Shown here: positions 826-44,152 of the stretch, piece after piece | Numbering within the stretch: position 1 is the stretch's first letter | Layout: each line of letters opens with the position of its first letter | Assembly (NCBI GenBank): GCA_041653535.1 | Contig: JBAZFH010000003.1 | Coordinates: 2,771 to 66,770 of the forward strand | Origin: Patescibacteria group bacterium | GTDB lineage: Bacteria > Patescibacteriota > Patescibacteriia > JACRDY01 | DNA length: 64,000 nucleotides | Reading direction: 5' to 3' | Program-made: the position numbers and the translations under genes | Notes under the pieces: generated by a model | The model's input: the letters and a program-made list of their open reading frames with translations, nothing else | The model's database searches: none | Told to the model about the DNA's origin: nothing

Positions 826-851
826 TAGCTGGTAATATAATTTTAATAAAA

Positions 852-9800: not shown

Positions 9801-11345
9801 GATTGCCAGATGATCGGTAAGCCATATTTATTAAATCCGAAATGCGGCGATGCTTGCGATGTTGATTGTTGGGGGACCGACCCAGACGACTGCAAGACAA
9901 AATGCAATGCTTTGGCAAATACTTGGTGGACCGGCTTTGGCGGCACTGCTAATTGTTGTGGTGACGACACGACTGATAATAAAGATTATGGCTGTGTAGT
10001 ACAAAAGAGTTGCGGTAATGGCGTAATCGATCAGCGAAAAGACGGTGTCTGGGAGAAGTGTGATGACGGTGATACAAACACGGCTAATGTATGCAATAAT
10101 AGCTGTACTTGGAACTGTAAAGATAACAGCAGCCAAGCAACAATTACTTTTACTCCGGAAGAAAAATCATTGGTTACACTGCAACCAAACGCCACCATGG
10201 TAAATACCACGGTTAATATTCCGGTTTGTCGTACCGCAAATAAAATAACAATGAAAGTTTATCAAGATGCTGGCGCGGTTGGTGGTAGCTCGGTTGCCTT
10301 GGTGTTTGTATCCGATCTATCTGGTAGTATGAATGAAATATTAGAATCACCAAAAACTCGTTTAGACGTTCTCAAAGAATCTCTTAAGACAGCTATTAGC
10401 ACGTTGATTGATGAGGGCGCTGGTGTGGAAGTTGGGCTGGTTAGTTATGCTCTGACGTCCGGACCAGACACTCCTGGATTTTTACCGGTGCAAGAATCGC
10501 AAAATACTTTAAATGGCGTTATAGATAGTTATGTTGCTGGTGTCGGTGGTCTGCGGGGCAGCTCCACGTATCAGGATTTAGGGCTGCAGGAAGCTCAGAA
10601 AATGTTTAATGATTATCCCAAGGATTCTTCTGGCAAAGATTTTGACAAGAAGGTGGTTGTATTTATGACTGATGGCAATTTTAGCGGTAGTCACGATGCT
10701 ATGGCGGAAGCGACCGTATTAAAAAATCCAAACATCGGCGTAGATATGTTTACCGTGGCGTTGACAGCTGATTTGGGTCTTCGTGCCTATATGAATGGGC
10801 TCTCTTCCAGTAATTGCATCTGCGGGGATAATAATTGTAAGAATAAAGTCAGCGGTACTAGCGGTGGAGATGGCGTAGTAACTTGTAGAACCGCTAATGA
10901 TTTATTAGAGGAGTGTGATCTGACGCGAGACAGTATTTATTGTAAACAAGAAACAAATGAATTAAATTGGGTTAGTTCTGGTCGTAATAGGGCTTATAGC
11001 GCTACTACCGCCAGTCAGTTGCAGGGTTTATATGAAACGATTGCCGGTGCTATTTCCGATGAAACTGTCGCAGTTACTTTTAATGGCGGTCCGCAGCTGA
11101 CATTTAATAATTATCAGTATAATCCGGTGAATAATAAATACGAAGGTACTTTGGAAATAACACTAGATTCGACATATTGTTCATCGACCATGCCGACCGA
11201 GTCAAGCGATGAGTTTAAGGCTTATAATATTTCTTTCCAAACACCTATTGTCAAACCGGTGGTCTTTAGTGCCGGTAAACTACTTTTCTGTCCTTGGAAA
11301 AATGGTTATTATGGAGAGAGCGAAATAATAAAATCAACACTTTAA
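852..11345 (+). CDS. giant (~3,497 aa) multidomain cell-surface protein: signal peptide, TrbC/VirB2-type (T4SS-pilin-like) membrane hairpin, IPT/TIG-like repeats, Myxococcus-type Cys-rich repeats, TSP3-like Ca-binding repeats, C-terminal vWA domain
   Basis: The ATG at 852 (MKKTERYKKIIFTASIVLALLVSLFWINSINAANS, signal-peptide-like) lies inside track ORF 795..11345; the frame is uninterrupted for 10.5 kb. Motifs are read directly from the translation: GFLGIIAVGICLYAGFLWMTSAGEAEKIEKAKRILIEGVIGLLIIVLAFAIVSFVV; repeated P..G..VTIxGxNFG; at least 7 CGNG(V/I)(V/I)xxGExCDxG...C modules; DxDxDGxxDxxDNCP; DLSGSM...VVVFMTDG. Confidence 0.8.
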   Translation: MKKTERYKKIIFTASIVLALLVSLFWINSINAANSNDFGLNQVGQVVNLPTADIRVTVANIIRYALGFLGIIAVGICLYAGFLWMTSAGEAEKIEKAKRILIEGVIGLLIIVLAFAIVSFVVSKLLEATGTGTEPDKTCSTENSGEVNGCWVCQSSSWTYDSSIAGCGRTDDFWVTDIKPRENAVGPKDTVVRIYFNKQVNFDSIDLDDGDITISKIGEIDPTTKEVTTTYSSPLAVAGTIQFKSGDKTVVEFRPNDLCDAACSETSDKKCKKCFSPWGLYQVNVRQGSIQDAIKGKSNQCGVVIDHCTRKFKINDVMDEESPKVSITSLEPSQGRYVPENYAVEVRISAKDNYEISDVQLYIDDMNTPVATLTSEPYVYTWQTPDGLGLKHTLLAKASDTDDNPAGVSAEREAIVRAWHCFNNQKDTFSSSPEKNEFEIDCGGTECGACVGADCDAADKDTTTCKTPTNDVCWTNYCAPADCKCEGWPEIQTVEPGRAPKGNFVTIRGRFFGKTSGQVVFLGGAGEADDKIGIKPSQINNQCDDESCWTDTQVIVVLPDGAVSGPIKIITTENKEDATNDNHGSQLLDFDVCTTSNGNCYDYPGICKLNPAQGAADALFKIYGINFGTTQGSALVKFGGKYSAVINSWADTGKEAEARVPNIQSGRPTVTIERGDIKSNPFEFLVKSSPLANPIISDVQPKSGGFGQYVTITGQNFGRAGVVEFINKNDTSKKFPADLNFPQQCQDKIWNNNQVIVKVPDTGSALLGDYFIVISRSSDNASSAAADFIINTDTPTPGICLLKPDNGPEATPVYVFGDSMGSQNGSVNFWQATVTAPIISWSEVVKVQVPKNTKTGPVVLVSAQGKSSNPLNFSVGSCRADDDCTGKPTAGECDQDQELGVSPKTNCWVCNKSVATGNYYWEWSDTSCGVIDQCCPSGVCQTKGTCVGIGVLSSYAWAFSTGEIPRYPKVVEECNRDETCPEGANTPSPSPWTPRWDINRGFDLACPNSVITARFNMDMNPDDLEDVNNYNFEKCGYQTDVNGDGKDDHDPCVCSPTANCACINGGNTNCNQKINITADNLITFNDGFIVNFAGVGLQPDSWYRMALRKGDALPGTTGFHSATAQGGYQLLADYIWQFKTRVDSAKCKIGCPTVVPVSYTANRLAKLYLNWDNPAFPRNPVYHTAQASAENNPCNLIDTYDYQWSWKATEADGANTNKAALYQIPSNGCSDSRDNDNDGKKDYKAGCTVDSVDCDYKCVSSYDRSEEAGEQLVAYFGNLRHAEAIKPTGGNTYSCDCDIAPQCSDSLENDGDNKVDYPADTECDTPGDYSELLSGLQTRSDVIVVAQKGVITNSSEECQLYCKGLSNNTWSWYKTGGYQIAGDPVLIRAQELSSGKEGRANLFINLEDPKVIAKWPDCSQACVNSQVGAAFNVPMAENTLVDAKNVMLFSCGADLECKKENMSSVPIENIDPDLSIDYRYSESVDDGLYNSELTFYPRSTTPGDYNGGKLLPNTYYRVILGSPDNDPIQNIDGLKLIGLNYDNYAADNVPDSYSWIFSTKNDYNLCSVDHVSVTPNKAFLSAIPAYQSYFSQAFGRSDDCSPFGQKLNNSFYSWKWESEKPTVAQTIGYSVGCGNGIIDRGENCDDGVYPPVSGDGCSNKCLREGSSYSVFGLCGNGVVESWEQCDYGVKIGNPAWTENNCNSATCLLNTTSRPAGSCRDGVIQSWESCDYGPLITDYYTDQEDNHVYNNYEVNSCNANTCLNTGNTNQGLAVCGNGRLEGGEACDVVDEPNNNNTDGCADNCVSSGSVDGRSLCGDGQVGTGEECELCWNDDKSVFSVIRNGSCSANSLYGHGDIDSGTPSFAGKTKDPASAEAGCQRAGADKVSCVILNSSGGYKYDRNRIGNWWKSSCQNGIVDRGEECDLGSIVENYYGGQNNYEVNNCNPTNCLYNGSSEATPDLLNRKAYQLAQSVGEGRANITAFTGGVCTGDPKFTACIQTSDCPLNSVGNKYECDLSGTKKGSSDLTVVCGWTDEACALNNAGYGADASGCCRTRPVVYSSYPHGDNVCRNTSISVLFDSNHPMDFTTFNSKNISVSVDGCAVAVNSGANRWWHYLVNTYQRVKDWVIGVFSHQANAAEINECTVNYSVTGIEYVDNGVGSDGLTHSKMVINLSSPLPPNKTIKVKFASAVKDSLGVSVLRGANVYEWTFNTGEEICSLNYVRLSPTSKSFTQTDEVENFVASTFNANGQEIEMVPGFYSWNWSWSLTPEINNTSATLSAGVATYCSVTNKACNPEHGNADCVDPKYPSQVCGAPYNYPYVSRVTSQKTNGEGQLIATATITSDSIIDAGKTFAAQAGVVVFVCENPWPQVCSATIASGNLLACEKDDDCYTEVGHQYVGPCKFDAVSNFSDSDNTIVSQFKNPENYTNFRTYYCRDAGSAGFDDDLPALVYPPIFTQTPVLPAQKGLIRHILLPRDNFRRGGETGGSNDALIMSVEANPQHISAAQWFSDRFDASATAAKAVGGYSAVSKDSTYYINAANWSRSTNTMYTNIYILSQSQNSNVNTKNIFQQLLNNMKFNVNVDGQGVGTDLCRAGTGLVTKKPFVCSNNKKTSCVADTDCGADGKCEILGWCNNDNSKSCSTLDVGNTVDNECGDEAVLPKAFCDTNAFAEPISCSKDFDCYRCKDNTNVVCELDSDCPNVYSGACAKDVSGNAAYCDAPRAKLIRNTQRLADLHTMTSILNNYYQKNNKYPTLDAGSYVSGRSYSTWPSWQATLGNDLGSGLPVDPIDQFNGCYDANYNFNRQTCWDNKALLFSCPQNSYTYFYSSNNGGNEGRVLVHLEKPENGDINVYESDYEDQDYFDAVSDNCKNFSGYSINDSDQDGVPDFGDNCPYEKNGYVGSDCPTNAPQCCPFTDKKKCCAWYGTADEEKYCGQANTDGDNLGNSCDWICPVDGNNDSDNDFVCGGQDNCWSVYNPLQVDSDGDCQMIGKPYLLNPKCGDACDVDCWGTDPDDCKTKCNALANTWWTGFGGTANCCGDDTTDNKDYGCVVQKSCGNGVIDQRKDGVWEKCDDGDTNTANVCNNSCTWNCKDNSSQATITFTPEEKSLVTLQPNATMVNTTVNIPVCRTANKITMKVYQDAGAVGGSSVALVFVSDLSGSMNEILESPKTRLDVLKESLKTAISTLIDEGAGVEVGLVSYALTSGPDTPGFLPVQESQNTLNGVIDSYVAGVGGLRGSSTYQDLGLQEAQKMFNDYPKDSSGKDFDKKVVVFMTDGNFSGSHDAMAEATVLKNPNIGVDMFTVALTADLGLRAYMNGLSSSNCICGDNNCKNKVSGTSGGDGVVTCRTANDLLEECDLTRDSIYCKQETNELNWVSSGRNRAYSATTASQLQGLYETIAGAISDETVAVTFNGGPQLTFNNYQYNPVNNKYEGTLEITLDSTYCSSTMPTESSDEFKAYNISFQTPIVKPVVFSAGKLLFCPWKNGYYGESEIIKSTL
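1017..1230 (+). other. pilin-like double-TM hairpin segment of the giant protein (TrbC/VirB2 / T4SS-pilin-like family, as seen in CPR bacteria)
   Basis: The hairpin has two hydrophobic helices separated by MTSAGEAEKIEKAKRIL, with a GFLWMTS motif typical of this conjugative-pilin-like family. Confidence 0.55.
10290..10810 (+). other. von Willebrand factor A (vWA) domain with MIDAS motif in the C-terminal region of the giant protein
   Basis: VALVFVSDLSGSM (DxSxS MIDAS) followed by ...LVSYA... and ...KKVVVFMTDGNF (second metal-coordinating T/D), giving a Rossmann-like alternation. Confidence 0.6.
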
Positions 11346-16853: not shown

Positions 16854-16860
16854 ATAATAA

Positions 16861-16889
16861 AAAGACCCGCTAATTAAGCGGGTCTTTTG
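16861..16889. terminator. rho-independent (bidirectional) terminator between ftsZ (+) and the convergent membrane-protein gene (-)
   Basis: aaagacccgcTAATTAAgcgggtcttttg: an 8-bp GC-rich stem, a 7-nt loop, then a T-run. Confidence 0.7.
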
Positions 16890-16901
16890 AAATTGTTACA
16901 A

Positions 16902-19154
16902 TTATCTTTTGAAGTAAAAGATATGAACATTGCCATTATCTATCTCTTGCCAGCTATCGGCTTGAGTCATTATTTCGGAAGTTATTTTGTCAAAATCATT
17001 CCAATATTTATTGATTACAAAATATCCTTGGTTAACCCCAACCGTATCCATTGCTTGAATCATTTTTTTTCTGGTTGGTTCGCCATAAACCATTTCCAGA
17101 TAAATTTTATAAAGTGGTCCGGAAGTAGGAATAGGATAGTAAAATATTTCTCCTTTTGTTGTTTTATAATATTTTTTGAAGCCAAAAATTTTTAAGACCG
17201 CAGCTGATGTTGACTGGTTGGCTAAGACAATATAATTTCCGGTAGTATTTTGTTCCATATAACTAACGGCGAGAATATCTGATCTAGAAGTTGAGTAAAA
17301 ATGGCTGATTTGGTAGGCGTCGCTGTGCGGATAAGACAAATAAAGATTGGCGGTGATTAATAGGGCAAATATGATGCCAAAAAATATTTTGACTAACATC
17401 TTTTGGCGTAAAATTTTATGAGTGAGTTCGTAGAATGAATAAAGCGCTAGTGGAAAAAGGAAATAAAAAGATAAATTGAAAAGTCGCAAAGCATAGTCGT
17501 TTTGTTCATAATTTATTACTGATTGCCAGTCGATAAATATCCTAAGTGAAAAATAATCTGCAAGCAAAAGTAGGAAGAATAACGGGTAAAGATAGTATTT
17601 ACTTTCTTTATTATCATCTTTTTTCTTATTGATCAGGTAGTAGCCGATTGCACCGAAGACGATAGTCAGCCATTTAACATTATCGCCGAAAAAATGGAAA
17701 TAGTCGTCAAGTAGACGAAACTTGTTATCAAAAGAAGGTGCAAGAACGGAGAAAGCATTTTTTATTTCAGTCCAATTAATCTTTTCCAGTGTCAAGTTGT
17801 TAATAATATGAGGTGAGGAAAAGTTTTGAATAAAAAAAGCTCCAGGTAGCGATATTAATGATGCTAAAATGATAAAAATTATAACAACTTTGCGCCAGTA
17901 GTTGTGTTGAAAACGATAGGTGGAAAAAAATAAGATAATAGAAAAAAAGAGAATGGGAATGCCTGTTAGGGGATGAATAGCTACTGTTACAAAAGATAAA
18001 AATAGTAGCAGATAACTAAAGCTGTGGTCGACATTTTTACTAATTAATAGCGAGCTACCGATAATAATAATCAAAGCAAAAAAATTAGCCAATCCTTGTG
18101 GTGTAGTGGCAATAAAATCTGCTAAAGGGAAAAGTAGAATTACTAATGGTAAGAAGTAATATATACTGCGTTGCCTTATTTCTTCATGGTCAGGATCAAT
18201 AACGGTTAGATTTTCTCCTGTGACTTTACGGTAGACCAGGTAGATAAATGTTGGAATAAATGCGGAAAAAAGTAATGGTAGTAAAAAAGCATCTACAACA
18301 GAGGTGGGCAGTTGCAGTAGGCGGGAAAGGTTTACTACAAGTGAATATTGACCAATGTAATAAACCGTCTTTGGCAAAATAATTCCGGTGACGCTGATAA
18401 CTTTCTCTGCCGCTTGATGAATAAAAGGATCAAAGCCGTAACCAATTTGATAAATAAATAAAGCCAATCCTACAGTTAAAAAGGCATGGGAGCGAACAAG
18501 CATTAGATTTAGCCCTCTTTGTTTTTTTGTTGTAGTTATTATAATCAGGACTAGGGTGCAAAGGAAGTAGCCAGCTAAAAATTTTAGCGGGAGTACTTGC
18601 CAGAGACTATTAATAGCCTGATCGGTGATGTTGAGATAAACGATTAACCAACAGTAAATCATCAGTCCGGTATAAGTGGTTAAGAGTAGGCAATAGACTG
18701 AAAATTTTTTTAATTCGGTTTTTCTTTCTAAAGAAAAACGCCAGAGAAACCCTTTAATTTTTAGAGAGTATTTTGCGGCTTCTCTTAGCCAGACAGCTAT
18801 TGCTGGGATCGGTAGTTTGTTGGTTTGTTGAGATATCGCTTTTTGGATGGCATTAATTATAAGAGGGATGATAAATAGAATAATGGCAGTTATTTGGTTT
18901 GTTAGTTTGTACGGGTAGTATGCTGCCGTTCCTAGTAGGGAAATAACTGCTAAAATCAGAAAAGAACCAACTAACAGTTGTATTGCTAGCTGTTCTCTTT
19001 TAAAAAACGCCTTGCCTAATAGATAACCGTTCCAGAATAAATAGGTGAAGCCAAAGATTATGCCAATCGTTAGAGATTTCCAGGTTAATATGTTAGCAAT
19101 GACGATTAACGAGATAAAAGTGGATGTGAAAAGCATAGTGTTTTTATTGTACAT
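16902..19154 (-). CDS. large polytopic membrane protein with C-terminal extracytoplasmic domain (YfhO/GT-C-like, putative lipid-linked glycosyl transferase)
   Basis: The protein has at least 14 predicted TM helices and a ~170-aa hydrophilic C-terminal domain. The track's start at 19208 is a TTG that would overlap the divergent gene, so I place the start at an internal ATG (MYNKNTMLF...); the exact start is uncertain. Confidence 0.5.
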   Translation of the reverse strand: MYNKNTMLFTSTFISLIVIANILTWKSLTIGIIFGFTYLFWNGYLLGKAFFKREQLAIQLLVGSFLILAVISLLGTAAYYPYKLTNQITAIILFIIPLIINAIQKAISQQTNKLPIPAIAVWLREAAKYSLKIKGFLWRFSLERKTELKKFSVYCLLLTTYTGLMIYCWLIVYLNITDQAINSLWQVLPLKFLAGYFLCTLVLIIITTTKKQRGLNLMLVRSHAFLTVGLALFIYQIGYGFDPFIHQAAEKVISVTGIILPKTVYYIGQYSLVVNLSRLLQLPTSVVDAFLLPLLFSAFIPTFIYLVYRKVTGENLTVIDPDHEEIRQRSIYYFLPLVILLFPLADFIATTPQGLANFFALIIIIGSSLLISKNVDHSFSYLLLFLSFVTVAIHPLTGIPILFFSIILFFSTYRFQHNYWRKVVIIFIILASLISLPGAFFIQNFSSPHIINNLTLEKINWTEIKNAFSVLAPSFDNKFRLLDDYFHFFGDNVKWLTIVFGAIGYYLINKKKDDNKESKYYLYPLFFLLLLADYFSLRIFIDWQSVINYEQNDYALRLFNLSFYFLFPLALYSFYELTHKILRQKMLVKIFFGIIFALLITANLYLSYPHSDAYQISHFYSTSRSDILAVSYMEQNTTGNYIVLANQSTSAAVLKIFGFKKYYKTTKGEIFYYPIPTSGPLYKIYLEMVYGEPTRKKMIQAMDTVGVNQGYFVINKYWNDFDKITSEIMTQADSWQEIDNGNVHIFYFKR

Positions 19155-19184
19155 TTTTTGGCTTAATTTTGCTATAATTATAGC

Positions 19185-20828
19185 ATGAAAAAAATCCACA
19201 GTCACCAAATAATTTTGCTAATTTTGGGCATATTTTTTTTGCTGGTGTATAGCTGTGTTTCATTTTTTACGCCGGAGCGTTTTAATTCGCCCGATGAAGC
19301 GGCTAATTTTTACTGGTCAGAGAGAGTCGCCTTCGGCAATCGTTTGGCAAGTTTGGTTTTAGAGAATAGGGAGACCGGTAATGCAGTGCATTTACGTAGC
19401 GACAATGTTAATAATACAGGAGAGGTTGTTCCCGGTGGTTTTTTGGGTTTGCCGCTAGTTTATGGTTTTTTGGGCAAAGTATTCACACCAACGGCAATAA
19501 AATTTTTTACTTCAATATTTGCCGTAGCAGCCGTTTGGTGTTTTTATGGTTTAGTGAAAAAAATATTTAGCAGTAGTCGTGTCGCGATAATTTCCAGCAT
19601 TTTACTATTTGTAAATCCGGTTTGGTGGTATTACGCTAGCCGAGGGTTATTGCCGAACGTTTTGTTTGTTAGTTTATTATTGATTAGTGCTTGGTTGGTT
19701 TTTTGTTGCAGTAAAAATATTTATTGGCGTTACGTTTTGGGCGGATTATTCTTTGGATTGGCGCTGGCTGCTAGAACGGCCGAAATTTTTTGGTTGGCAA
19801 CAATTATCTTGGCACTTGCTGTCGTTTATCGTAAGCAGATAAATGGGCTAGCTATGATTTTATTTTTAGTTTTTACCGCCGCGCCGCTTTTGGTAGTTTT
19901 GTTTATTAATAAAGATATCTATGGCGGGTATTTTGTTACCGGGTATTCCTCTCTTGCTGCTCCCGTGGACACTACTGCTTTTATTACCGGAAACAGTATT
20001 AGTGTTTTACCATTTGGTTTTCATCCACGAACCGCTCTGATCAATTGGTGGAACTATCAAGTGCAAATGCTCTGGTGGTATTTTATTCCCATGATAGTTG
20101 GTTTGGTTTTTTCGGTACGTGATTTAGTCCGTCAGTATGATGTTAAAAAATGGTTTTATCTGATTATTTTTGTTGTTCTAAGCGATTGGTTGACTGTTTA
20201 TTATGGCAGCTGGGCAATAAAAGACAATATTTCCGGGCATTATACTATTGGTACTTCTTATTTGCGTTACTGGTTACCGATTGTTGTTTTTGCCGTGCCG
20301 TTTGTTGCTTATGCTATCAATTATTTACTAGATTGGTTAAAACAAAAGTGGTCGAAAATTTTAGTCGGGATATTATTTTTTGGAATCATAGTTTCTTTGT
20401 CAGCTCAACTTGTTTTAACTTCAGAAGAAGGCCTGATATCGGTAGTGCAAAATATTAATCAGTATCAGAAAACAAATTTGGCAGCGCAGCAGCAATTTTC
20501 GTCCAGAGACAAGGTTTTAATTGTCAGCGATCGCAGCGACAAGGTTTTTTGGCCGGAGTTTAAAGTAGTGAAATTTATGGGCGATTTTGGTGTTTTCGAG
20601 CGTCTTAGCAGCGTCGTTAGTTCTAATGACGTTTATTACTATTCGCACAACAACTTAACGGCAGAAAATCTGCAGTATTTAAATGATAATATTAAGCAAT
20701 TGGGCTTAGTGCTCGAAAGGCAAGGGACGCTAAATGGTGGGGATGAGCTGTATAAGCTGAAAGTTTCCGCCCAAGGCGGATCCCTGCCTACTGGACAGGC
20801 AGGCGCCTCTGGCGGAATAAAGTTATAA
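19185..20828 (+). CDS. GT-C family membrane glycosyltransferase (ArnT/PMT-like, lipid-phosphate-sugar dependent)
   Basis: Multi-TM protein; the first extracytoplasmic loop carries the conserved DE motif (FNSPDEAANFYW) typical of the GT39/GT83 families. TATAAT sits 6-7 nt upstream of the ATG. Confidence 0.6.
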   Translation: MKKIHSHQIILLILGIFFLLVYSCVSFFTPERFNSPDEAANFYWSERVAFGNRLASLVLENRETGNAVHLRSDNVNNTGEVVPGGFLGLPLVYGFLGKVFTPTAIKFFTSIFAVAAVWCFYGLVKKIFSSSRVAIISSILLFVNPVWWYYASRGLLPNVLFVSLLLISAWLVFCCSKNIYWRYVLGGLFFGLALAARTAEIFWLATIILALAVVYRKQINGLAMILFLVFTAAPLLVVLFINKDIYGGYFVTGYSSLAAPVDTTAFITGNSISVLPFGFHPRTALINWWNYQVQMLWWYFIPMIVGLVFSVRDLVRQYDVKKWFYLIIFVVLSDWLTVYYGSWAIKDNISGHYTIGTSYLRYWLPIVVFAVPFVAYAINYLLDWLKQKWSKILVGILFFGIIVSLSAQLVLTSEEGLISVVQNINQYQKTNLAAQQQFSSRDKVLIVSDRSDKVFWPEFKVVKFMGDFGVFERLSSVVSSNDVYYYSHNNLTAENLQYLNDNIKQLGLVLERQGTLNGGDELYKLKVSAQGGSLPTGQAGASGGIKL

Positions 20829-20844
20829 AATTAAAAGCCATATT

Positions 20845-21429
20845 ATGCCACGTTGGTACAAAGTGTTTAAAATTATATTGATACTGGTTCCGGTCATATT
20901 TTTTATTTTTTTGGTTTGCCAGGATTTGGTGGTAAGCGGCAGGCTTGAAGCTGCTTATAATTTTTCAGAGCCATCTCCTTTTGTTATGCCATTAGCGCCA
21001 AAGGCGAGAATAAGCGAGGTTAAAAAAGAGTCTAGCGACTACTATCAAACTATGTTTGACGATCCGATTTATTTTGATGTTAGGCTGCCACGCAAATTTT
21101 CCACAATCACTTTTTGGGCTAAGTTTCGACCGACAGCCGGACAAACTGTTCGTCTGGCTGCTTTTAACAACAAAGACCAGTGGAATTTTGAAGCCAAAGA
21201 TTTTTTTCAAGTAGAAGACCTGGGCGACGGTTGGTATTTGGGTAGCGTTGATTTCGACATGTCGGCTAAGAGGTTTGCCTTTCAAAAATATCAGTTTATG
21301 GTTTCTTTACCAGGGATAAGAGGGAGCGGTCGAACGGTTGATATCAGCGAGATAAAAATGCTATCCCAAAGGGAGCCGATGACATTGGGTATCTTTTGGC
21401 AAAAATTAAAAGCAAAGATTTTTAACTAA
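20845..21429 (+). CDS. membrane-anchored hypothetical protein (N-terminal TM, extracytoplasmic domain)
   Basis: ORF of 194 aa beginning with the hydrophobic anchor IILILVPVIFFIFLV; there is no recognisable catalytic motif. Confidence 0.45.
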   Translation: MPRWYKVFKIILILVPVIFFIFLVCQDLVVSGRLEAAYNFSEPSPFVMPLAPKARISEVKKESSDYYQTMFDDPIYFDVRLPRKFSTITFWAKFRPTAGQTVRLAAFNNKDQWNFEAKDFFQVEDLGDGWYLGSVDFDMSAKRFAFQKYQFMVSLPGIRGSGRTVDISEIKMLSQREPMTLGIFWQKLKAKIFN

Positions 21430-21434
21430 GGGAT

Positions 21435-21617
21435 ATGAAAGTGACGTTTTTAAAAATTTTGTATGACGTCTTCTCTGTCAGCGCCGTGTCTTGGGCTGTT
21501 TGTGTCGTCAGTGAAACAATTAAACCGGGTTTTGTGACTAATTATTTAGACATGAATATTTTTTTGCTTTGGACGGTAATTATTGGTATTATTTATACGT
21601 TGATGAATAAAAATTGA
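21435..21617 (+). CDS. small two-TM membrane protein (hypothetical)
   Basis: 60-aa ORF with two hydrophobic segments, tightly packed between its neighbours. Confidence 0.3.
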   Translation: MKVTFLKILYDVFSVSAVSWAVCVVSETIKPGFVTNYLDMNIFLLWTVIIGIIYTLMNKN

Positions 21618-21618
21618 T

Positions 21619-21966
21619 ATGAAAATAGCTATTTGCGGCAGCATGGTTTTTGCGACTAAAATGATGGAGGTAAGAGATTTTTTAACTACAGCGGGACAAG
21701 AAGTGGTCTTGCCGGCTAACGTTGATAAGTATGCCAACAACGAAATGACAGTGGAAAACAAATGGGAAAAACTAGAACTGGACGTGATTAAAAGATATTA
21801 TAATGAGATTAGACAAGCAGATGCGATTTTAGTGGTTAATGAAAGTAAAAATGGAACCGAAAATTATGTTGGTGGAAACAGTTTAATTGAAATGGCGTTC
21901 GCCCATGTTTTGGATAAAAAAAATTTTTTTACTCAATTCGATTCCTATTGGGATGAGTTATGCTGA
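21619..21966 (+). CDS. hypothetical protein (possible nucleoside 2-deoxyribosyltransferase-like Rossmann fold)
   Basis: MKIAICGSM...AILVVNES...GGNSLIEMAFA matches this fold only weakly. Confidence 0.4.
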   Translation: MKIAICGSMVFATKMMEVRDFLTTAGQEVVLPANVDKYANNEMTVENKWEKLELDVIKRYYNEIRQADAILVVNESKNGTENYVGGNSLIEMAFAHVLDKKNFFTQFDSYWDELC

Positions 21967-22020
21967 CGAGATAGAAGCGATGAAGCCCGTTATTTTAAAC
22001 GGCGATCTAACAAAAATAGT

Positions 22021-22060
22021 CTAGTCGCTAGCTGCTAGCCACTAGTTCCTAGTTACTAAT
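22021..22060 (+). repeat. 7-bp periodic CTAG direct-repeat array (CTAGnnn x5 + CTAAtca) immediately upstream of the rmlC start
   Basis: The sequence is ctagtcg ctagctg ctagcca ctagttc ctagtta ctaatca; CTAG tetramers are otherwise sparse in the window. Confidence 0.6.
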
Positions 22061-22064
22061 CAAT

Positions 22065-22514
22065 ATGATTGACGGAGTAGTAATAAAAAAAATAACTCGC
22101 TATAATGATAATAGAGGATGGCTTGGTGAGATTTATCGTTCTGATGAATTTGATTTCAAACCAGCTATGTCCTATATCTCTGTGACCAATCCCGGTGTTG
22201 TTCGTGGTCCACACGAACACCGAGCCCAAGCAGATCTTTTCGTCTTTGTTGGACCGGGGTCGTTTCGTTTGCACTTATGGGATAATAGAAAAGATAGCCA
22301 AACCTATGGCGAAAAGTATGAAGAGGAGTTTGGCGAAAATAATCCAGCGGCAGTGATAGTTCCGGCTGGTGTAGTACATGGTTATAAGTGTTCATCTGCA
22401 ATTGCTGGTTGGGTGATAAATATGCCAGATAAATTATATAAAGGTGAAGGTAAAAAGGAAGATATAGACGAAATTCGTTGGGAACAAGATGTTAATTCTC
22501 CTTTTAAAATTTAA
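22065..22514 (+). CDS. rmlC: dTDP-4-dehydrorhamnose 3,5-epimerase-like cupin (RmlC family, short form)
   Basis: NDNRGWLGEIYR matches the RmlC N-terminal (D)ERG(F)F(xE) signature. VVRGPHEHR corresponds to RGLH(F/Q), and IVPAGVVHGY corresponds to iPxGfAHGF. Confidence 0.7.
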   Translation: MIDGVVIKKITRYNDNRGWLGEIYRSDEFDFKPAMSYISVTNPGVVRGPHEHRAQADLFVFVGPGSFRLHLWDNRKDSQTYGEKYEEEFGENNPAAVIVPAGVVHGYKCSSAIAGWVINMPDKLYKGEGKKEDIDEIRWEQDVNSPFKI

Positions 22515-22529
22515 TATAGCTAATACTAT

Positions 22530-23105
22530 ATGGAACTCTTCAAACCAAAACTTCAGCCGCATGACAAGATAATGAAATATACGGTCTTGCTTTTGATTCC
22601 AAAATTTTTGCGTCCGAACCATTTTACTTATTTACGTTTTGTTTTTACGCCGCTTGTTATTTATTTTATTTTAGTTTCTGACTATCGGGCAGCTTTAGTT
22701 TCTTTTTTGTTGGTTGCTTTTACCGATGCGATCGATGGATCACTGGCTAGAACCAGGGATCAAATCACTGAGAGAGGAACGGTTTTAGATCCGATAGCGG
22801 ACAAAATATTAATCAGTTCAACAATTTTTGTTTTAATGCTTAAACATATAAATGTTTTTATTTCTCTAGCAATTATAATCCTGGAATCATTGTTTTTGGT
22901 TGGCTGGTATCTTCGTCATAAGTACGGCAAAAAAGAAAAAGTAAATGTTTGGGGCAAAATAAAGATGATTTTGCAGGTGGCGGGAGTGGCGATTTTACTT
23001 TTGGGATTATGCACGGGAAATCCGATGATGTTTTACTATTCTCAGACTACTTTGATTTTTGCTATTATTTTTGCCTTAATCAGTTTATTTAGTTACGGCA
23101 TATAG
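22530..23105 (+). CDS. CDP-alcohol phosphatidyltransferase family protein
   Basis: The family signature Dx2DGx2ARx8Gx3Dx3D is present (DAIDGSLARTRDQITERGTVLDPIADK) in a multi-TM protein. Confidence 0.8.
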   Translation: MELFKPKLQPHDKIMKYTVLLLIPKFLRPNHFTYLRFVFTPLVIYFILVSDYRAALVSFLLVAFTDAIDGSLARTRDQITERGTVLDPIADKILISSTIFVLMLKHINVFISLAIIILESLFLVGWYLRHKYGKKEKVNVWGKIKMILQVAGVAILLLGLCTGNPMMFYYSQTTLIFAIIFALISLFSYGI

Positions 23106-23109
23106 CTTT

Positions 23110-24171
23110 ATGGCTAGAATTTTGTACTCAGTCCAAGGTGTTGGCATGGGGCATGCGATGCGTAGTTTGGTGGTAATAGAGCATCTGTGTTCCGAAGGGC
23201 ATGAAGTAATTATCACCGCCAACCACAAAGCTTATGATTTTTTCAAAACTCGCTATCCGCGAGTTTATGAGTTAAAAGGATTTGATTTTGTTTTGGATAA
23301 AAACGGAATGATGCTTTGGATACCAACATTTTTGCGATGGGTGGAAAAAATGCCGGTTTATTTTTTGCAGAATACCAGGAGGTTACGAAAAATCATCAAT
23401 GAGTTTAAGCCGCAAATAGTAGTCACCGACTTCGAACCTTTTGCGCACTATATTGCTAATATTTATCGCTTGCCGCTTGTTAGTATAGACAACCAACAGC
23501 GGATAATTTTTTGCCCACTCAAATTATCAAAAGGCTATCGTGACGAAATTTTTCGTGCCAAAGCTGCGATTAAATCTTTTATCGTGAAAGCCGATTATTA
23601 TATTATTTTGGATTTTGCCGGTTGCAAGTTAAAAAAAGAAAAAAATAATGTTTTTTTGACACCACCGATTTTACGCAAAGAGATAGTACGCGCCCAGCCG
23701 ACCGATGGGAATAAAATTTTGGTTTACATGTGGGAGCGTTACGCCGATCGGGCGATACAGGTATTAAATAAAATACCAGAGCACAATTTTATTTTATATG
23801 GTTTAAATCGTGAAGGCAAAGAGGGGAATGTGGAACTGCGTTTATTTTCTACGGAAAATATGGTAAAAGACTTGGCGGCTTGTCACGCGATAATTGGCAA
23901 CGCTGGCTTTACTTTGGTTAGCGAAGCGATGTTTTTACAAAAACCGTTTCTGGTTGTGCCGATGGCTGGTCAGTTTGAGCAGATAGTTAATGCCCTGGAG
24001 ATTAAAGAAAAAAACTACGGTCTGACTGTTGATGAGCTGACGGTCGAAAACGTTAGAGAATTTTTGTCACGGCTACCGGAGTTTAAAAAATCATTACAAG
24101 GTAAAGATTTTTGTGGTAACGAAAAAGTTTTTACAATCTTAGACAAAATAATAAAAGATAATAGTAGATAA
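23110..24171 (+). CDS. GT-B glycosyltransferase (GT28 / MurG- or MGDG-synthase-like)
   Basis: The N-terminal G-loop (ILYSVQGVGMGHAMRS) and a C-terminal GNAGF...E region are typical of GT28-type enzymes. Confidence 0.6.
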   Translation: MARILYSVQGVGMGHAMRSLVVIEHLCSEGHEVIITANHKAYDFFKTRYPRVYELKGFDFVLDKNGMMLWIPTFLRWVEKMPVYFLQNTRRLRKIINEFKPQIVVTDFEPFAHYIANIYRLPLVSIDNQQRIIFCPLKLSKGYRDEIFRAKAAIKSFIVKADYYIILDFAGCKLKKEKNNVFLTPPILRKEIVRAQPTDGNKILVYMWERYADRAIQVLNKIPEHNFILYGLNREGKEGNVELRLFSTENMVKDLAACHAIIGNAGFTLVSEAMFLQKPFLVVPMAGQFEQIVNALEIKEKNYGLTVDELTVENVREFLSRLPEFKKSLQGKDFCGNEKVFTILDKIIKDNSR

Positions 24172-24172
24172 T

Positions 24173-25183
24173 ATGAAACTATTTATTACCGGCGGCGCTG
24201 GGTTTATCGGCTCCAATTTTATTCTCTATTGGGCTAAGAAATACCCCAAAGACAAGATCGTTAATTTTGATAAATTAACTTATGCCGGCAATTTGGAAAA
24301 CCTAAAAACGGTTGAAAAAAATAAAAATTATAAATTTATCAAAGGCGACATCACTGACCCGGTGGCGGTAAACAAGGCTATGGCCGGCGCTGATATCGTA
24401 GTGCATTTTGCTGCCGAAACTCACGTTGACCGATCAATACTTGGTCCAGCAGTTTTTGTTACGACCAATGTTATCGGTACTCAAGTGTTACTCGATGCCG
24501 CTCTCAAACACAAAATAAAAAGATTTCACCATGTTTCTACCGATGAAGTGTTTGGTGCGCTAAAGCTTGGCAGTAAAGAAAAGTTTAGTGAAAAAACGCC
24601 TTACAACCCGCATAGTCCTTATTCTGCGGCTAAGGCTGCGTCAGATCATCTGGTTCGCGCTTACGCCGATACTTTTGGTTTGCCGATTACTATTTCCAAT
24701 TGTGCCAATAATTACGGCCCCTATATGTTTCCGGAAAAGCTGATTTCTCTAGCCATTACTAATTTAATGGAAGGAAAACCGGTGCCGGTTTACGGTGATG
24801 GTAAATATGTTCGTGACTGGCTATATGTCGAAGATCATTGTCGGGCGATTGATTTGATTTTGAAAAAAGGCAAAGTAGGGCAAACTTATTGTATTGGCGG
24901 TATGACCCAAGACGTGAATAATTTGGAACTAATAAAAAAATTATTAAAGATTTTGGGTAAAGACGAAAGCAGTATTGTTTTTGTCAAAGACCGTCCTGGT
25001 CACGATCGTCGCTATGCTATTGATTGGTCAAAAGCTAAAAAGGAGTTAGGCTACAAACCACGGTATGATTTTAATACTTGCCTGAAGAAAACTGTTGACT
25101 GGTATGTAAAAAACGAAAAATGGTGGCGGCGAGTTAAATCAGGCGAGTATCAGAAGTATTATAAAAAGCAGTATGGAAAGTAG
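24173..25183 (+). CDS. rmlB: dTDP-glucose 4,6-dehydratase
   Basis: The NAD-binding motif TGGAGFIGSNF, the catalytic YSAAKAASD (YxxxK) and an extended short-chain dehydrogenase fold are present; size is 336 aa. Confidence 0.9.
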   Translation: MKLFITGGAGFIGSNFILYWAKKYPKDKIVNFDKLTYAGNLENLKTVEKNKNYKFIKGDITDPVAVNKAMAGADIVVHFAAETHVDRSILGPAVFVTTNVIGTQVLLDAALKHKIKRFHHVSTDEVFGALKLGSKEKFSEKTPYNPHSPYSAAKAASDHLVRAYADTFGLPITISNCANNYGPYMFPEKLISLAITNLMEGKPVPVYGDGKYVRDWLYVEDHCRAIDLILKKGKVGQTYCIGGMTQDVNNLELIKKLLKILGKDESSIVFVKDRPGHDRRYAIDWSKAKKELGYKPRYDFNTCLKKTVDWYVKNEKWWRRVKSGEYQKYYKKQYGK

Positions 25184-25189
25184 TTTGTT

Positions 25190-26050
25190 ATGAAAATATT
25201 AGTCATCCACAATTCGGTCGCTGGCAAAAAAAGAAAAGTCGTGCGCACTGCCCGACGGATTTTGCAAAATTTTGATTATGATTGGGTGGAGACGAATAAA
25301 AATGGGGACTATCTGGAAAAAATTGACGGCAAAATTTACAATCGAGTAGTTGTTTTTGGCGGTGACGGCACGGTGCACCAAACGGTAAACTGGATTTTGA
25401 AAAATAACTACGATTTGGTTTTGGGCGTGGTGCCGGTGGGTAGCGCCAATCTACTCGCTAAAAGTTTTAAAATTCCAAGTAACGTCGGACTAGCTCTTGA
25501 TCTAGCCTTAACCGGGGAGACAGAAACGATTGATGTCGGGCTGATAAATAAAGAAAAGTATTTTATAATTGCCGCCGGTCTGGGGTATGACGCTTGGGTA
25601 ATAAAAAATACCAAGCGTGCCTGGAAAAGATTATTTGGTTTTTTTGCCTATACTATTTCCGCTTGGCATGGTTTGTTTCATTTACGGGAAACTAATTTTT
25701 CGTTTACTATCGACGGTCAGCGCGTACAACATCATGCTAAAACTGTTTTTATTATGAACTTTGGCAAGTTTCTTGGTTTTGAACTTGGTCCGGATATCTC
25801 TTACAACGATGGTTGTTTTTCATTAGCCGTAGTGCGACCGGTTAAGCCAATAGATTACGTTCGAATGCTTGGGCGGCTAATCGGCAGAAAATTTAATTGG
25901 GAAAAACGGTTGGATTATTATAAATTTAAAAGATTGCAAATAAATTATGATAAAAATATTTTGTTGCAGGTTGACGGTGAGGGTTGGCAAGCGGGAAGTC
26001 CGATTGAGATTGAAGTGGCGAAGCAGAAATTGAAAGTGGTAACGAGATAA
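25190..26050 (+). CDS. diacylglycerol-kinase-catalytic-domain lipid kinase (DagK/YegS-like)
   Basis: The GGDGT motif is present (VVVFGGDGTVHQTVN) with a downstream conserved G-rich region. Confidence 0.75.
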   Translation: MKILVIHNSVAGKKRKVVRTARRILQNFDYDWVETNKNGDYLEKIDGKIYNRVVVFGGDGTVHQTVNWILKNNYDLVLGVVPVGSANLLAKSFKIPSNVGLALDLALTGETETIDVGLINKEKYFIIAAGLGYDAWVIKNTKRAWKRLFGFFAYTISAWHGLFHLRETNFSFTIDGQRVQHHAKTVFIMNFGKFLGFELGPDISYNDGCFSLAVVRPVKPIDYVRMLGRLIGRKFNWEKRLDYYKFKRLQINYDKNILLQVDGEGWQAGSPIEIEVAKQKLKVVTR

Positions 26051-26114
26051 TGCTAGTGTGCCAATAGTATATAGAAAAAAAACGATTAATTTAATTTATT
26101 TAAAAATAGCATCT

Positions 26115-26834
26115 ATGAAAGGTATTATTCTTGCTGGCGGCAAGGCAACTCGGTTACGCCCGTTAACCAAGGTGACTTCCAAGCAGCTTTTGCCGATTTA
26201 TAATAAACCGATGATTTATTATCCGTTGGAAACACTGCTCCGAGCGGGAATTAAGGATATTTTGATCATTATTTCCCCAGACAATGCCGGGCAATTTTTG
26301 CATTTGCTTGGTTCGGGCAAAGAGTTTGGTGAGGACGTGAGATTTAGTTACGAGATACAAGAAGAGCCACGGGGACTTGCCGACGCGTTTATTATCGGTG
26401 AAAAGTTTATTGGCGATGATAATGTTACTATGATACTTGGCGATAATATTTTTGAAGACGATCTAGCCAAAGATATTGCCAGTTTTGAATCCGGTGGCCG
26501 GATTTTTTGCAAAAAAGTTAATGATCCAGAACGGTTTGGTGTGGCGGTTTTTAGTCAAGATAATCAGGTTATGAAAATTGTGGAAAAACCAAAAGAATGG
26601 ATTTCTGATTATGCTATTGTTGGTGCTTATGTTTATGACAACCGAGTTATAGAGTTTGCTAAAAACGTTAAACCATCAGCGCGTGGTGAAATTGAGATTA
26701 CCGATTTGCATAATGCTTATTTGGATTTAGGTGAGCTCGATGTTCGATTTATTGAAGGCGGATATTTTGACGCCGGTACTTTTGATTCGCTTTTGGCTGC
26801 TGGAAATTTTATGGCACAAAAAGCAAAAGATTAA
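26115..26834 (+). CDS. rmlA: glucose-1-phosphate thymidylyltransferase
   Basis: MKGIILAGGKATRLRPLT...SKQLLPIYNKPMIYYPL matches the GxGxR nucleotidyltransferase signature; the start is placed at MKGII. Confidence 0.9.
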   Translation: MKGIILAGGKATRLRPLTKVTSKQLLPIYNKPMIYYPLETLLRAGIKDILIIISPDNAGQFLHLLGSGKEFGEDVRFSYEIQEEPRGLADAFIIGEKFIGDDNVTMILGDNIFEDDLAKDIASFESGGRIFCKKVNDPERFGVAVFSQDNQVMKIVEKPKEWISDYAIVGAYVYDNRVIEFAKNVKPSARGEIEITDLHNAYLDLGELDVRFIEGGYFDAGTFDSLLAAGNFMAQKAKD

Positions 26835-26891
26835 TCGGATAAAAAAAGAGCCGGAAAAAATATTCGGTTCTTTTTAATTTGAATTTGTTAT

Positions 26892-28259
26892 TTATTCTTG
26901 GATGGTTATTTCGAATATGCCTTCTTTGCTATCAAGTTTTCCGTTATAAAATATTTTATTTCCTTTTGGTGTAACCAGAAAATTCTTGATTTTTTCACCG
27001 TTAGCAATGTCTATAGAGTTTCTTTTGTCGCGGGCGTCCAGCTCGATAATTTTTACAGCATTATCAGTAGTAGTAATAATATAATCAGTATTTGGTATAA
27101 ATGAGGTTTGATTAATAATCTGACCATAGCGGTCAACCAACTGATTGGTGTTTTTTTCGTAATCATATATCCAGATTTCAAAATCGTTGTTATATAAGAG
27201 GGTTTTTTGGTTTGTTGACCAGGAAAAATTTTTTGCTTCTCCAAAAAGTAATATTTGATTAAAATTATTATTAATCAGATAAAATTTTTGTTTTTCCCTA
27301 TCAATAAGGGATATGGTTCCGTTTTGATTTTGACGGAAATCGAAATCCGCCATGGAGTCTAACTTTAAAAGCTTAGTCGGATTGGTCTGGCTTATTCCTT
27401 GATCCAGGCTGATTTTTTCCAGCCAATTTCCTTGTTCTGACCGGTGAGCGTAGTAAATTTCATTATTTAAATATAAAAAATCTTTGCCGTAATAATTTTC
27501 AATATCTGGTTTCTTGGTATAGAGAAGGCGACTTTCTTTTGTTAAAGTGTTTATCTGATAAAGATTGTTGCCAGAGCTGGCGTAAAGCAGATAGTCGACT
27601 TGGTCAGACCATTTTAGATGGTCGATCTTTTTGTTGATGATTCCGCCTGGCAATAGTTTTTTATCAGGGTTATCAAAGTTGTAAATAATAAAATTTTTTT
27701 CTACGTCTTGAGCAATAAATTGAGTAGAGCTAATAGACCATGATGATAGTTGTAATATTTTTGTTTTTTCTTCAAGAGGAGTGTTTTGCAAATTGTTAAT
27801 ATTAAAAGCAAATAAGTTGTTATCAGTGATATAAGCAAATTTTTTATTATCTGGTGATGGTAGTAACTGACTGGTTGGTTCTTCAAAAATGTTTACAGCC
27901 TTTTCTTTTTTAAAAAGCACCACTTTGTTGATAAAAGTGTTGACACTGCTAAAAACTTCTATTTCTTTCTCCCATGAATAATAACCGTCGGCACTAATAG
28001 CTATTTTATATTTTCCGGGAAGAAGATTCATGATACGCAGCGTGTTGTCTGAACGCGACTCTGTTCGCAGTTCGTTGTTAAGATAAATTTTAGCAGTCGT
28101 TGGAGATGGTTGGACGGAAATCGAGCCAACTTTTTGGATGTCATTTTTTTTGAAATTATAACGATATCCCGCCGTGTAAAAGATCAAAATCGGGGCGACG
28201 ATAAGAAAGACCGCGACAAAAATGATGGCAATAAATCTCCTGGTTCTTAAAGATAGCAT
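26892..28259 (-). CDS. membrane-anchored PEGA-domain protein with beta-propeller-like C-terminal region (hypothetical)
   Basis: N-terminal TM helix, then a PEGA-like block (AKIYLNNELRT...LPGKYKIAISADGYY), then long W/Y/N-rich repeats. Confidence 0.5.
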   Translation of the reverse strand: MLSLRTRRFIAIIFVAVFLIVAPILIFYTAGYRYNFKKNDIQKVGSISVQPSPTTAKIYLNNELRTESRSDNTLRIMNLLPGKYKIAISADGYYSWEKEIEVFSSVNTFINKVVLFKKEKAVNIFEEPTSQLLPSPDNKKFAYITDNNLFAFNINNLQNTPLEEKTKILQLSSWSISSTQFIAQDVEKNFIIYNFDNPDKKLLPGGIINKKIDHLKWSDQVDYLLYASSGNNLYQINTLTKESRLLYTKKPDIENYYGKDFLYLNNEIYYAHRSEQGNWLEKISLDQGISQTNPTKLLKLDSMADFDFRQNQNGTISLIDREKQKFYLINNNFNQILLFGEAKNFSWSTNQKTLLYNNDFEIWIYDYEKNTNQLVDRYGQIINQTSFIPNTDYIITTTDNAVKIIELDARDKRNSIDIANGEKIKNFLVTPKGNKIFYNGKLDSKEGIFEITIQE

Positions 28260-43878: not shown

Positions 43879-43900
43879 CGAAATAGGCGATTTTCTAGGT

Positions 43901-44143: not shown

Positions 44144-44152
44144 TATTGTCGT

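Follow-up and report, generated by a model that had tools for sequence, protein, structure and literature searches.

The stretch of DNA analysed here, a 64-kb window from a Patescibacteria group bacterium, carries a locus in which two large polytopic membrane proteins are encoded divergently and in which the plus-strand arm runs on into genes for dTDP-sugar and lipid head-group enzymes. We refer to the ~750-aa minus-strand protein as M750 and to the 547-aa plus-strand protein as GTC547; CDP-OH and DagK denote the CDP-alcohol phosphatidyltransferase and the lipid kinase of the locus, respectively. Gene identities were assigned with curated hidden Markov models (HMMs) from Pfam and with the equivalog and subfamily cut-offs of NCBIfam/TIGR. 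The comparison set comprised 80 genome loci centred on M750 homologues, to which we added several contigs carrying GT-C or cupin homologues and three metagenome loci that proved informative. A census of 88 loci was then taken with genes labelled by HMM family profiles, the small protein mini60 being added by jackhmmer.

All open reading frame (ORF) coordinates given by a first-pass annotation, which had been made from the sequence alone, agree with our ORF calls. The tight run of six genes that it described (22065-26834) likewise stands, given HMM identities that agree and intergenic gaps of 1-15 nt. The gene list itself was incomplete, since four genes between GTC547 and the cupin gene had gone undescribed and two of these are conserved members of the unit. 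As judged from sequence, the limits of the unit are set by terminator-like hairpins and by a promoter-like region between the divergent genes (Table 1). The palindrome in the divergent control region is perfect, and TATAAT reads on both of its strands. A promoter-like site on the minus strand (19205-19177) matches at 10 of 12 positions and includes the TG element, and the plus-strand TATAAT box lies only 6 nt from the GTC547 ATG (19185), a spacing that suggests a leaderless GTC547 transcript. The longest ORF for M750 extends from 16902 to a TTG start at 19208; because the identical protein called by NCBI (P0121, locus tag WC310_03615) has 744 aa, the start is likely the ATG at 19154 or at 19136.

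Table 1. Genes and putative control elements of the M750/GTC547 locus, with positions in the 64-kb window.
Feature	Positions	Strand	Basis or remark
Hairpin resembling a terminator, between M750 and the convergent FtsZ gene	16860..16888		12-pair stem, 6 GC pairs, then T run
M750, polytopic membrane protein with C-terminal alpha/beta domain, probable divergent GT-C	16902..19154	-	Patescibacteria-specific family
Divergent control region, 30 nt	19155..19184		Palindrome GCTATAATTATAGC at 19171-19184; putative function
GTC547, GT-C glycosyltransferase, ArnT/PMT_2-like	19185..20828	+	Fold model; P36-D37-E38 loop motif
unk194, 194-aa single-pass membrane protein with extracytoplasmic domain	20845..21429	+	Conserved partner 3' of GTC547; 35/88 loci
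mini60, 60-aa two-helix membrane protein	21435..21617	+	Motif KPGFVTNYLDMN; jackhmmer, 33/88 loci
unk115, small soluble protein	21619..21966	+	Weakly conserved here; homologues in 4 loci near cupin
RmlC-family cupin variant, 149 aa	22065..22514	+	PF00908 56 bits
CDP-OH, PgsA-like CDP-alcohol phosphatidyltransferase	22530..23105	+	PF01066 99 bits
GT-B glycosyltransferase, MJ1255/VC2487 family	23110..24171	+	TIGR00661 211 bits; PF13528 292 bits
RmlB, dTDP-glucose 4,6-dehydratase	24173..25183	+	TIGR01181 467 bits
DagK, soluble lipid kinase, YegS/DgkB family	25190..26050	+	TIGR00147 124 bits
RmlA-type sugar-1-phosphate nucleotidyltransferase, short form	26058..26834	+	PF00483 197 bits; likely start ATG 26115, 239 aa
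Terminator-like hairpin ending the plus-strand unit	26843..26875		13-pair stem right after the RmlA stop codon
Membrane-anchored PEGA/beta-propeller protein, convergent	26892..28259	-	PEGA 21 bits, equal to its cut-off; involvement uncertain

The predicted fold of GTC547 firmly places this protein among the GT-C glycosyltransferases. The AlphaFold 2 (AF2) model has a pLDDT of 93.5, and its best 28 Foldseek matches in the PDB are all GT-C-type membrane proteins, headed by ArnT (5ezm, 4.9e-6) and including yeast Stt3, ALG9/ALG12, PglB, AftA, Pmt4, DPY19 and PimE. GTC547 itself has no Pfam match, PF13231 (PMT_2) included, even at E <= 10, and its profile finds nothing meaningful among PDB sequences. 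PMT_2 is matched by 58 of 88 GTC547 relatives at E <= 0.01 (best 1.2e-13), a few relatives match Alg9-like or STT3 models, and one matches AftA_N. The ArnT/PMT-like character originally proposed for this protein agrees with the fold matches and with the PMT_2 matches of its relatives. The loop motif SPDEAANFYW noted at first pass is real and comprises residues 35-44, just after helix 1; its P36 and D37 do not vary across 88 homologues, in which E38 and N41 reach at least 90% conservation. The window encodes one such protein, whereas one relative shows a striking expansion to about nine tandem GT-C paralogues of ~550 aa (L001, 10001-21629, and L086, 1-15497), of which seven precede and two follow the cupin/CDP-OH/RmlB genes.

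M750 belongs to a family of about 1,400-1,660 clusters at 50% identity (1.84 billion proteins searched) that occurs in Patescibacteria only, with at least 532 matches in GTDB species genomes. Neither M750 nor any of 62 family members matches a Pfam or NCBIfam model, and the M750 profile finds nothing meaningful among PDB sequences. Evidence for its nature comes from structure prediction and profile comparison. The top three Foldseek matches of the AF2 model (pLDDT 92.7) are STT3 proteins, at a weak level of similarity (E 6e-3 to 6e-2, TM score ~0.4), with EmbA and EmbB ranking lower. Alignment of the M750 and GTC547 families with hhalign gives 90% probability (E 1.6e-6, 333 columns), against 0.09% for another polytopic membrane family used as negative control. 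Two residues, D242 and H246, are invariant within the sequence GYGFDPFIHQ, which immediately precedes the stretch aligned with loop 1 in the GTC547 family. From these models and profiles, M750 is likely a divergent enzyme of the GT-C fold. The first-pass annotation had called it YfhO/GT-C-like, and of this composite label the GT-C half is probable in light of the hhalign and STT3 results and the YfhO half is lost: no match of M750 to YfhO (PF09586) appears at E <= 10, nor one by any of the 62 relatives at E <= 0.1. The PMT, STT3 and other Pfam GT-C models are likewise matched by none of the 62 at E <= 0.1. The broader claim that both large membrane proteins are of GT-C type is therefore firm for GTC547 and probable for M750.

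The census demonstrates that M750 and GTC547 form a conserved pair with two small membrane partners, unk194 and mini60. M750 was labelled in 85 of the 88 loci, GTC547 in 69, GT4 in 48, unk194 in 35, mini60 in 33, short GT2 in 31, DUF2304 in 29, CDP-OH in 26, long GT2 in 23, the cupin in 21, HIT in 21, RmlD in 20, RmlA in 18, DagK in 4 and the GT-B gene in 2. The two GT-C-type genes stand as a divergent pair in 65-69 of these Patescibacteria loci. Where present, unk194 lies directly or closely downstream of GTC547, and mini60 follows directly after unk194 in most of its loci, often overlapping the unk194 gene; neither unk194 nor unk115 has a Pfam match. In the common architecture, one arm reads RmlA-RmlD-(unk233)-RmlB-HIT-(cupin)-mini60-unk194-GTC547 and is transcribed away from M750. 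M750 occupies the opposite strand, and beyond it follow GT4, GT4, GT2, DUF2304, short GT2 and a short-chain dehydrogenase/reductase (SDR) epimerase, with GT2/DUF2304 genes beside M750 in 29-31 of the 88 loci. The PEGA protein gene that converges on the window RmlA gene adjoins RmlA in the same place in 16 loci.

The closest relative of the window locus, L085, encodes an M750 that is 51% identical to the window copy. Its order is LCP (LytR-CpsA-Psr), M750 on the opposite strand and, divergently, GT-C, GT-C, unk194, mini60, cupin, CDP-OH, GT-B, RmlB, unk196, DagK, unk233, RmlD, EEP and RmlA, followed by PEGA on the opposite strand and by MurA. L085 and the window thus share the order cupin/CDP-OH/GT-B/RmlB/DagK/RmlA, to which L085 adds LCP, RmlD and three extra genes. 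Identity between the two amounts to 83% for RmlA (239 aa), 82% for RmlB, 69% for both DagK and CDP-OH and 67% for the cupin. The order cupin-CDP-OH-(GT-B)-RmlB is also common to L086 and L002, and the M750 proteins of these loci, where seen, are only 42-51% identical. The GT-B gene takes this position in the window and L085 only among the 88 loci, and DagK takes its position in the window, L085, L086 and L003. Conservation of the locus as a unit is upheld by the divergent pair across the census and by the retention of the six-gene order in L085.

Among the sugar-nucleotide enzymes of the locus, RmlB scores above the TIGR01181 equivalog cut-off of 365 bits. RmlA falls below that of TIGR01207 (285 bits vs 361) and passes PF00483; its short 239-aa form is common to relatives. 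From these assignments, the RmlA-type enzyme and the bona fide RmlB should together be able to make dTDP-4-keto-6-deoxyglucose. The cupin belongs to the RmlC family, as the first-pass annotation had it, and scores better with PF00908 than with the FdtA-type model PF05523 (31 bits, cut-off 23, residues 5-79 only); the RmlC equivalog assignment fails, at 44 bits against a TIGR01221 cut-off of 156. Its nearest solved structures are RmlCs, the best being that of Sulfolobus tokodaii (2b9u, E 9e-9), compared with E 0.011 for the FdtA-domain protein 7n67. Of the RmlC catalytic residues, which we take to be His63, Lys73, Tyr133 and Asp170, the cupin keeps the histidine equivalent (H50) and the tyrosine of an 'LYK' motif. 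The lysine is replaced by aspartate ('AQAD' vs 'AQAK' in 6c46), and the protein ends ~35 residues early, such that the Asp170 region is absent. Both 'AQAD' and 'RGPHEH', the latter containing an FdtA-like HxH that is presumably the FdtA catalytic pair, are conserved in the 150-aa cupin family (64-71% identical, more than 100 clusters). Since the same atypical features co-occur with RmlD in relatives, the cupin is compatible with a normal rhamnose route, and its sequence is most simply read as that of an epimerase in a route of this type. A further set of loci (L005, e.g. 5091-5519 and 6548-7081; also L007, L008, L010 and L013) keeps RmlD and has, in place of the 150-aa cupin, a NUDIX gene and a full-length cupin of FdtA type (95 bits), which suggests a different deoxysugar in those lineages.

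No RmlD is encoded in the window. Searches of the six-frame translation of all 64 kb by tblastn and with a profile built on 14 RmlD sequences of related loci returned none, the sole match of the profile being a weak one to RmlB at 29 bits, in agreement with the first-pass annotation. That annotation had also allowed for an rmlD just outside the window; the ~10 kb of flanks that we recovered from Logan contigs (~6 kb upstream and 3.5 kb downstream) carry LCP, HisRS, HIT, L25 and PrmC genes and no RmlD or other SDR. The comparison loci explain this absence. RmlD is adjacent to RmlA in 16 of 18 related RmlA-bearing loci. L085 reads DagK-unk233-RmlD-EEP-RmlA and L086 reads DagK-unk233-RmlD-RmlA, whereas in the window DagK is followed directly by RmlA. 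The prevalence of RmlD in relatives and its presence in these two collinear loci indicate that the window copy descends by deletion from a complete cluster of rhamnose type. Judging from gene order, unk233 and RmlD were lost together in a clean, lineage-specific deletion, and their absence is not a design feature. The soluble ~233-aa unk233, which has no Pfam match, is always immediately upstream of RmlD (L085, 14732-15433; L086, 17390-18091; L011, 3301-3993). The earlier notion that the lack of RmlD defines the chemistry of the locus is consequently not supported. The sugar may be completed by a reductase encoded in another part of the genome; alternatively, this organism makes a different end product, and a 4-keto or other deoxyhexose is possible on the gene content. 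RmlA and RmlB also occur in L037 (1409-5455), where both RmlD and the cupin are missing and a methyltransferase-like gene (3751-4425) stands in their place.

Among the lipid enzymes, CDP-OH retains the motif D66xxD69G70xxA73R74...G83xxxD87xxxD91 intact, those residues being invariant in 15 sequences. Its score of 86 bits with the PgsA model TIGR00560 falls short of the equivalog cut-off of 109; the phosphatidylinositol phosphate (PIP) synthase model gives 27 bits, and the nearest solved structure is Staphylococcus aureus PgsA (7drj, E 3.6e-10). The glycerol-3-phosphate head group is bound in S. aureus PgsA by K83, R110, R118, K137, Y181 and T138 (PMC8640168). The counterparts of K83, K137 and Y181 in CDP-OH are K92, K145 and Y189; R110 is replaced by L118 or by the invariant E119, T138 is replaced by M146, and R118 faces an alignment gap close to R129. 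In about 20 of 24 loci, representing about 20 divergent lineages, the arm that diverges from M750 opens with CDP-OH. Three close metagenomic relatives (L087-L089) all lie in an M750/GT-C context, and distant PgsA-like genes do not; the metagenome scan seeded on the CDP-OH alignment used a motif that proved too generic and returned mostly ordinary PgsA-like genes of other phyla. This CDP-OH subfamily is thus dedicated to the locus and genetically tied to M750 and GTC547. Because it sits beside M750 in so many lineages, the lipid link is real, and the linkage of lipid enzymes with rml genes proposed at first pass is confirmed, the same order recurring in L085. We also considered whether CDP-OH substitutes for the GT2/DUF2304 donor synthase; among 40 loci with full coverage the two show no anticorrelation, both being present in 4, CDP-OH alone in 3, GT2/DUF2304 alone in 17 and neither in 16.

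The lipid kinase exceeds the TIGR00147 cut-off of 119 bits and is closest to S. aureus DgkB among solved structures (2qv7, E 4.8e-23). The glycosyltransferase between CDP-OH and RmlB, initially described as GT28-like, is indeed a GT-B protein related to MurG and GT28, and its family is corrected here to MJ1255/VC2487 (TIGR00661 cut-off 196 bits). It is not MurG, with 32 bits against an equivalog cut-off of 250, and the real MurG gene lies at 42603-43661. No solved structure related to it by sequence was found, and literature searches returned no paper on characterised MJ1255/VC2487 enzymes. The window contains no CdsA or LtaS gene and no recognisable flippase and, by family profiles, no GT2, DUF2304 or GT4 gene.

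These observations support the original description of an envelope glycoconjugate locus, and we consider it reasonably probable that the window holds one copy of a Patescibacteria-wide super-locus that builds or decorates an envelope glycopolymer. Our best reading of the product is a glycopolymer of rhamnose type with a probable lipid anchor; the lipid-anchored version of the pathway as a whole is offered tentatively, at somewhat less than even chances. In the proposed pathway, the keto-sugar delivered by RmlA and RmlB would be converted to a rhamnose-type 6-deoxyhexose by the RmlC-like cupin and, in relatives, by RmlD. Diacylglycerol, whose likely source is scavenging or recycling, would be made into a phospholipid anchor or acceptor by the DgkB-like kinase and the PgsA-like enzyme, and the MJ1255-type GT-B would add the first sugar to it at the cytoplasmic face. 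After flipping, GTC547 and M750 would act outside the membrane, drawing on lipid-phosphate-linked sugars to lengthen the glycan or to transfer it. Finally, the LCP enzyme encoded beside M750 in some relatives may attach the polymer to peptidoglycan. A more radical version, which we regard as improbable, has CDP-OH making a glycerophospholipid-linked head group (a phosphatidyl-sugar, phosphatidyl-polyol or other anchor), not ordinary phosphatidylglycerol phosphate, and has M750 using this as a donor or obligatory acceptor. If true, CDP-OH and M750 would constitute an extracytoplasmic glycosylation system acting on scavenged diacylglycerol lipids, instead of or besides polyprenyl carriers, and such glycosylation would represent an adaptation to a lipid-auxotrophic symbiotic lifestyle.

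Several points weigh against the rhamnose-type, lipid-anchored glycopolymer. The window lacks a polyprenyl-phosphate GT2, a flippase and RmlD, and hence an evident source of the GT-C donor. For M750, no Pfam GT-C model gives a match, the fold similarity is weak (TM score ~0.4, E ~6e-3), and the catalytic acid is guessed, with D242 as the candidate. The glycerol-3-phosphate pocket of CDP-OH is partly conserved, K83, K137 and Y181 being kept and R110 and T138 replaced, and the enzyme could simply be the cell's phosphatidylglycerol synthase. The GT-B and DagK genes, at 2 and 4 of the 88 loci, are clade-specific additions, not core parts. Substrates, product and topology are all predicted from sequence. 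The first alternative is juxtaposition in a compact genome: CDP-OH would be the housekeeping phosphatidylglycerol synthase, the kinase would recycle diacylglycerol, the rml genes would supply cytoplasmic glycosyltransferases of other loci and the GT-C proteins would glycosylate an unrelated target. Such housekeeping roles agree with PgsA and DgkB as the top matches of CDP-OH and the kinase, with the rarity of GT-B and DagK in the census and with a window rich in housekeeping division and wall genes (ftsA/ftsZ, murA, a mraY-like gene, murD, ftsW and murG). Juxtaposition is nevertheless unlikely in view of the recurrence of CDP-OH beside M750 in some 20 divergent lineages with differing surroundings, the restriction of that context to close members of the CDP-OH subfamily, the sub-cut-off PgsA score, the missing R110 and T138 equivalents and a cupin-CDP-OH-(GT-B)-RmlB order kept despite the divergence of the M750 proteins.

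A pathway that ends, for want of RmlD, at a 4-keto-6-deoxyhexose or at an epimerised or other deoxyhexose, which would be loaded onto lipid and used by the GT-C enzymes, no dTDP-L-rhamnose being made, would account for the absence of RmlD from 64 kb and ~10 kb of flanks, for the atypical cupin with its HxH, short C-terminus and no equivalent of Lys73, and for intact RmlA and RmlB genes that, at 82-83% identity to those of L085, are hence still constrained; L037, with RmlA and RmlB and neither RmlD nor cupin, offers a parallel. We hold this outcome to be quite improbable, given that RmlD accompanies the same atypical cupin in relatives, that a reductase may be encoded outside the window, where most of the genome lies, and that, to our knowledge, free 4-keto sugars are rarely end products. 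Least probable of all, in our estimation, is protein glycosylation by M750 as an STT3/PglB-like oligosaccharyltransferase or by GTC547 as a PMT-like O-transferase, with pilins or the giant surface proteins of nearby genes as targets. The STT3 fold matches of M750, the PMT_2 and occasional STT3 matches among GTC547 relatives and a gene for a 3,516-aa surface protein upstream (795-11345) are compatible with that role. It is opposed by the lack of a WWDxG-type motif among the invariant residues of M750, by linkage to LCP (L001, L002 and L085), CDP-OH and the lipid kinase, which points to polymers and lipids, and by the absence of a homologue of the giant protein from 82 compared loci.

The wider setting of the locus is as follows. 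Besides the division and wall genes listed above, the window carries genes for ribosomal protein L9, pyrG and SUF/Isc-type genes, and it has a GC content of 36-45% with strongly positive GC skew all along. Two FtsW/RodA genes of the shape, elongation, division and sporulation (SEDS) family occur within the 64 kb, one in the mur cluster (41492-42598) and one near the window end (62773-63864). A small ORF with a GIY-YIG nuclease domain (43805-44143, plus strand), directly 5' of tRNA-Lys (44152-44225), may be a mobile-element remnant. The giant 3,516-aa ORF on the plus strand probably encodes a surface or adhesion protein, having faint pilin-like, Big/Ig-like and VWA domain matches; the gene before it on the Logan contig encodes a 722-aa protein with a T4SS_pilin domain. 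An LCP gene lies ~6 kb upstream of the window start (L084, 88-1563). In L001, L002 and L085 LCP directly adjoins M750, whereas in this genome it is ~20 kb away, with the giant ORF and ftsA/ftsZ in between, which indicates rearrangement on that side of the locus. Close homologues of the genes studied all come from metagenome-assembled genomes of Patescibacteria (candidate phyla radiation, CPR), mostly Falkowbacteria-like. Many loci, among them L006, L013, L016 and L024, carry third-party annotation titles reading 'uncultured Gammaproteobacteria bacterium' above a Patescibacteria-type locus, and these titles are probably mislabelled.

Our literature searches found no paper on a Patescibacteria GT-C/CDP-OH/rml locus; a Saccharibacteria paper on rhamnose concerns host rhamnose. 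The surface coat of the Patescibacteria and their means of host attachment are largely unknown, and the locus provides a lead on surface make-up by defining a conserved gene set for envelope glycan assembly, namely M750, GTC547, unk194, mini60, CDP-OH and rml. The link between an extracytoplasmic glycosyltransferase and a phospholipid head-group enzyme bears, moreover, on how lipid-scavenging symbionts may build anchored polymers. Experiments look feasible because M750 homologues exist in lineages named as Saccharimonadales or Saccharibacteria, and the Saccharibacteria lineage has cultivated, genetically tractable members.

Among characterised systems, the closest analogues of the proposed pathway are mycobacterial synthesis of phosphatidylinositol mannosides and their lipoglycan products and the Firmicute cycle of glycolipid and lipoteichoic acid with its GT-C decoration. 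Extracytoplasmic glycosylation by three components is known from the Firmicute CsbB/GtcA/YfhO system, which combines a GT2 polyprenyl-phosphate-sugar synthase with a flippase or small membrane protein and with a GT-C transferase. Another three-component arrangement is represented by PpgS (Rv3631), Rv3632 and Rv3779 of Mycobacterium tuberculosis, the paradigm of a polyprenyl-phosphate-sugar synthase working with a GT-C (PMC3485146). The window resembles these systems in having a GT-C with an acidic first-loop motif beside sugar-nucleotide genes, and the short GT2 and DUF2304 beyond M750 in many related loci fit the PpgS/Rv3632/Rv3779 pattern. It differs in having no GT2 or flippase and in its fixed divergent pair of two GT-C types with unk194 and mini60.

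Mycobacterial synthesis of phosphatidylinositol mannosides, lipomannan and lipoarabinomannan begins with a pgsA1 (PIP synthase)-pimA operon and continues with GT-C mannosyl- and arabinosyltransferases. These GT-Cs use polyprenyl-phosphate sugars to build a lipid-anchored glycan (PMC3485146). The window likewise places CDP-OH beside a cytoplasmic GT-B, and related loci carry multiple GT-C paralogues, up to about nine in tandem in L001 and L086. In contrast to the mycobacterial pathway, CDP-OH is closest to PgsA and not to PIP synthase, the sugar is a dTDP-6-deoxyhexose instead of GDP-mannose, and Patescibacteria probably scavenge their lipids. The Firmicute route to glycolipid and lipoteichoic acid (DgkB, CdsA, PgsA and the GT28-type UgtP/YpfP) offers a second lipid precedent, in that S. 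aureus DgkB and PgsA are the nearest structures to the window enzymes and a MurG/GT28-related GT-B lies between their genes. Unlike that route, the window has neither LtaS nor CdsA, its GT-B belongs to MJ1255/VC2487 rather than to UgtP, and its CDP-OH is without the R110 and T138 equivalents. Common to the window and the canonical rmlABCD operon for dTDP-L-rhamnose are RmlB, here above its equivalog cut-off, an enzyme of RmlA type and a cupin of the RmlC family, and relatives have RmlD in the same block; the window departs from that operon in having no RmlD, a short RmlA below its cut-off, a 149-aa cupin with aspartate for lysine and an HxH, and interleaved lipid genes. The locus is thus of a known general kind, a polysaccharide or glycoconjugate locus, and what sets it apart is a phylum-wide family of GT-C-like proteins that lacks annotation, the constant pairing of two GT-C types together with two small partners, and a recurrent link to a PgsA-like enzyme.

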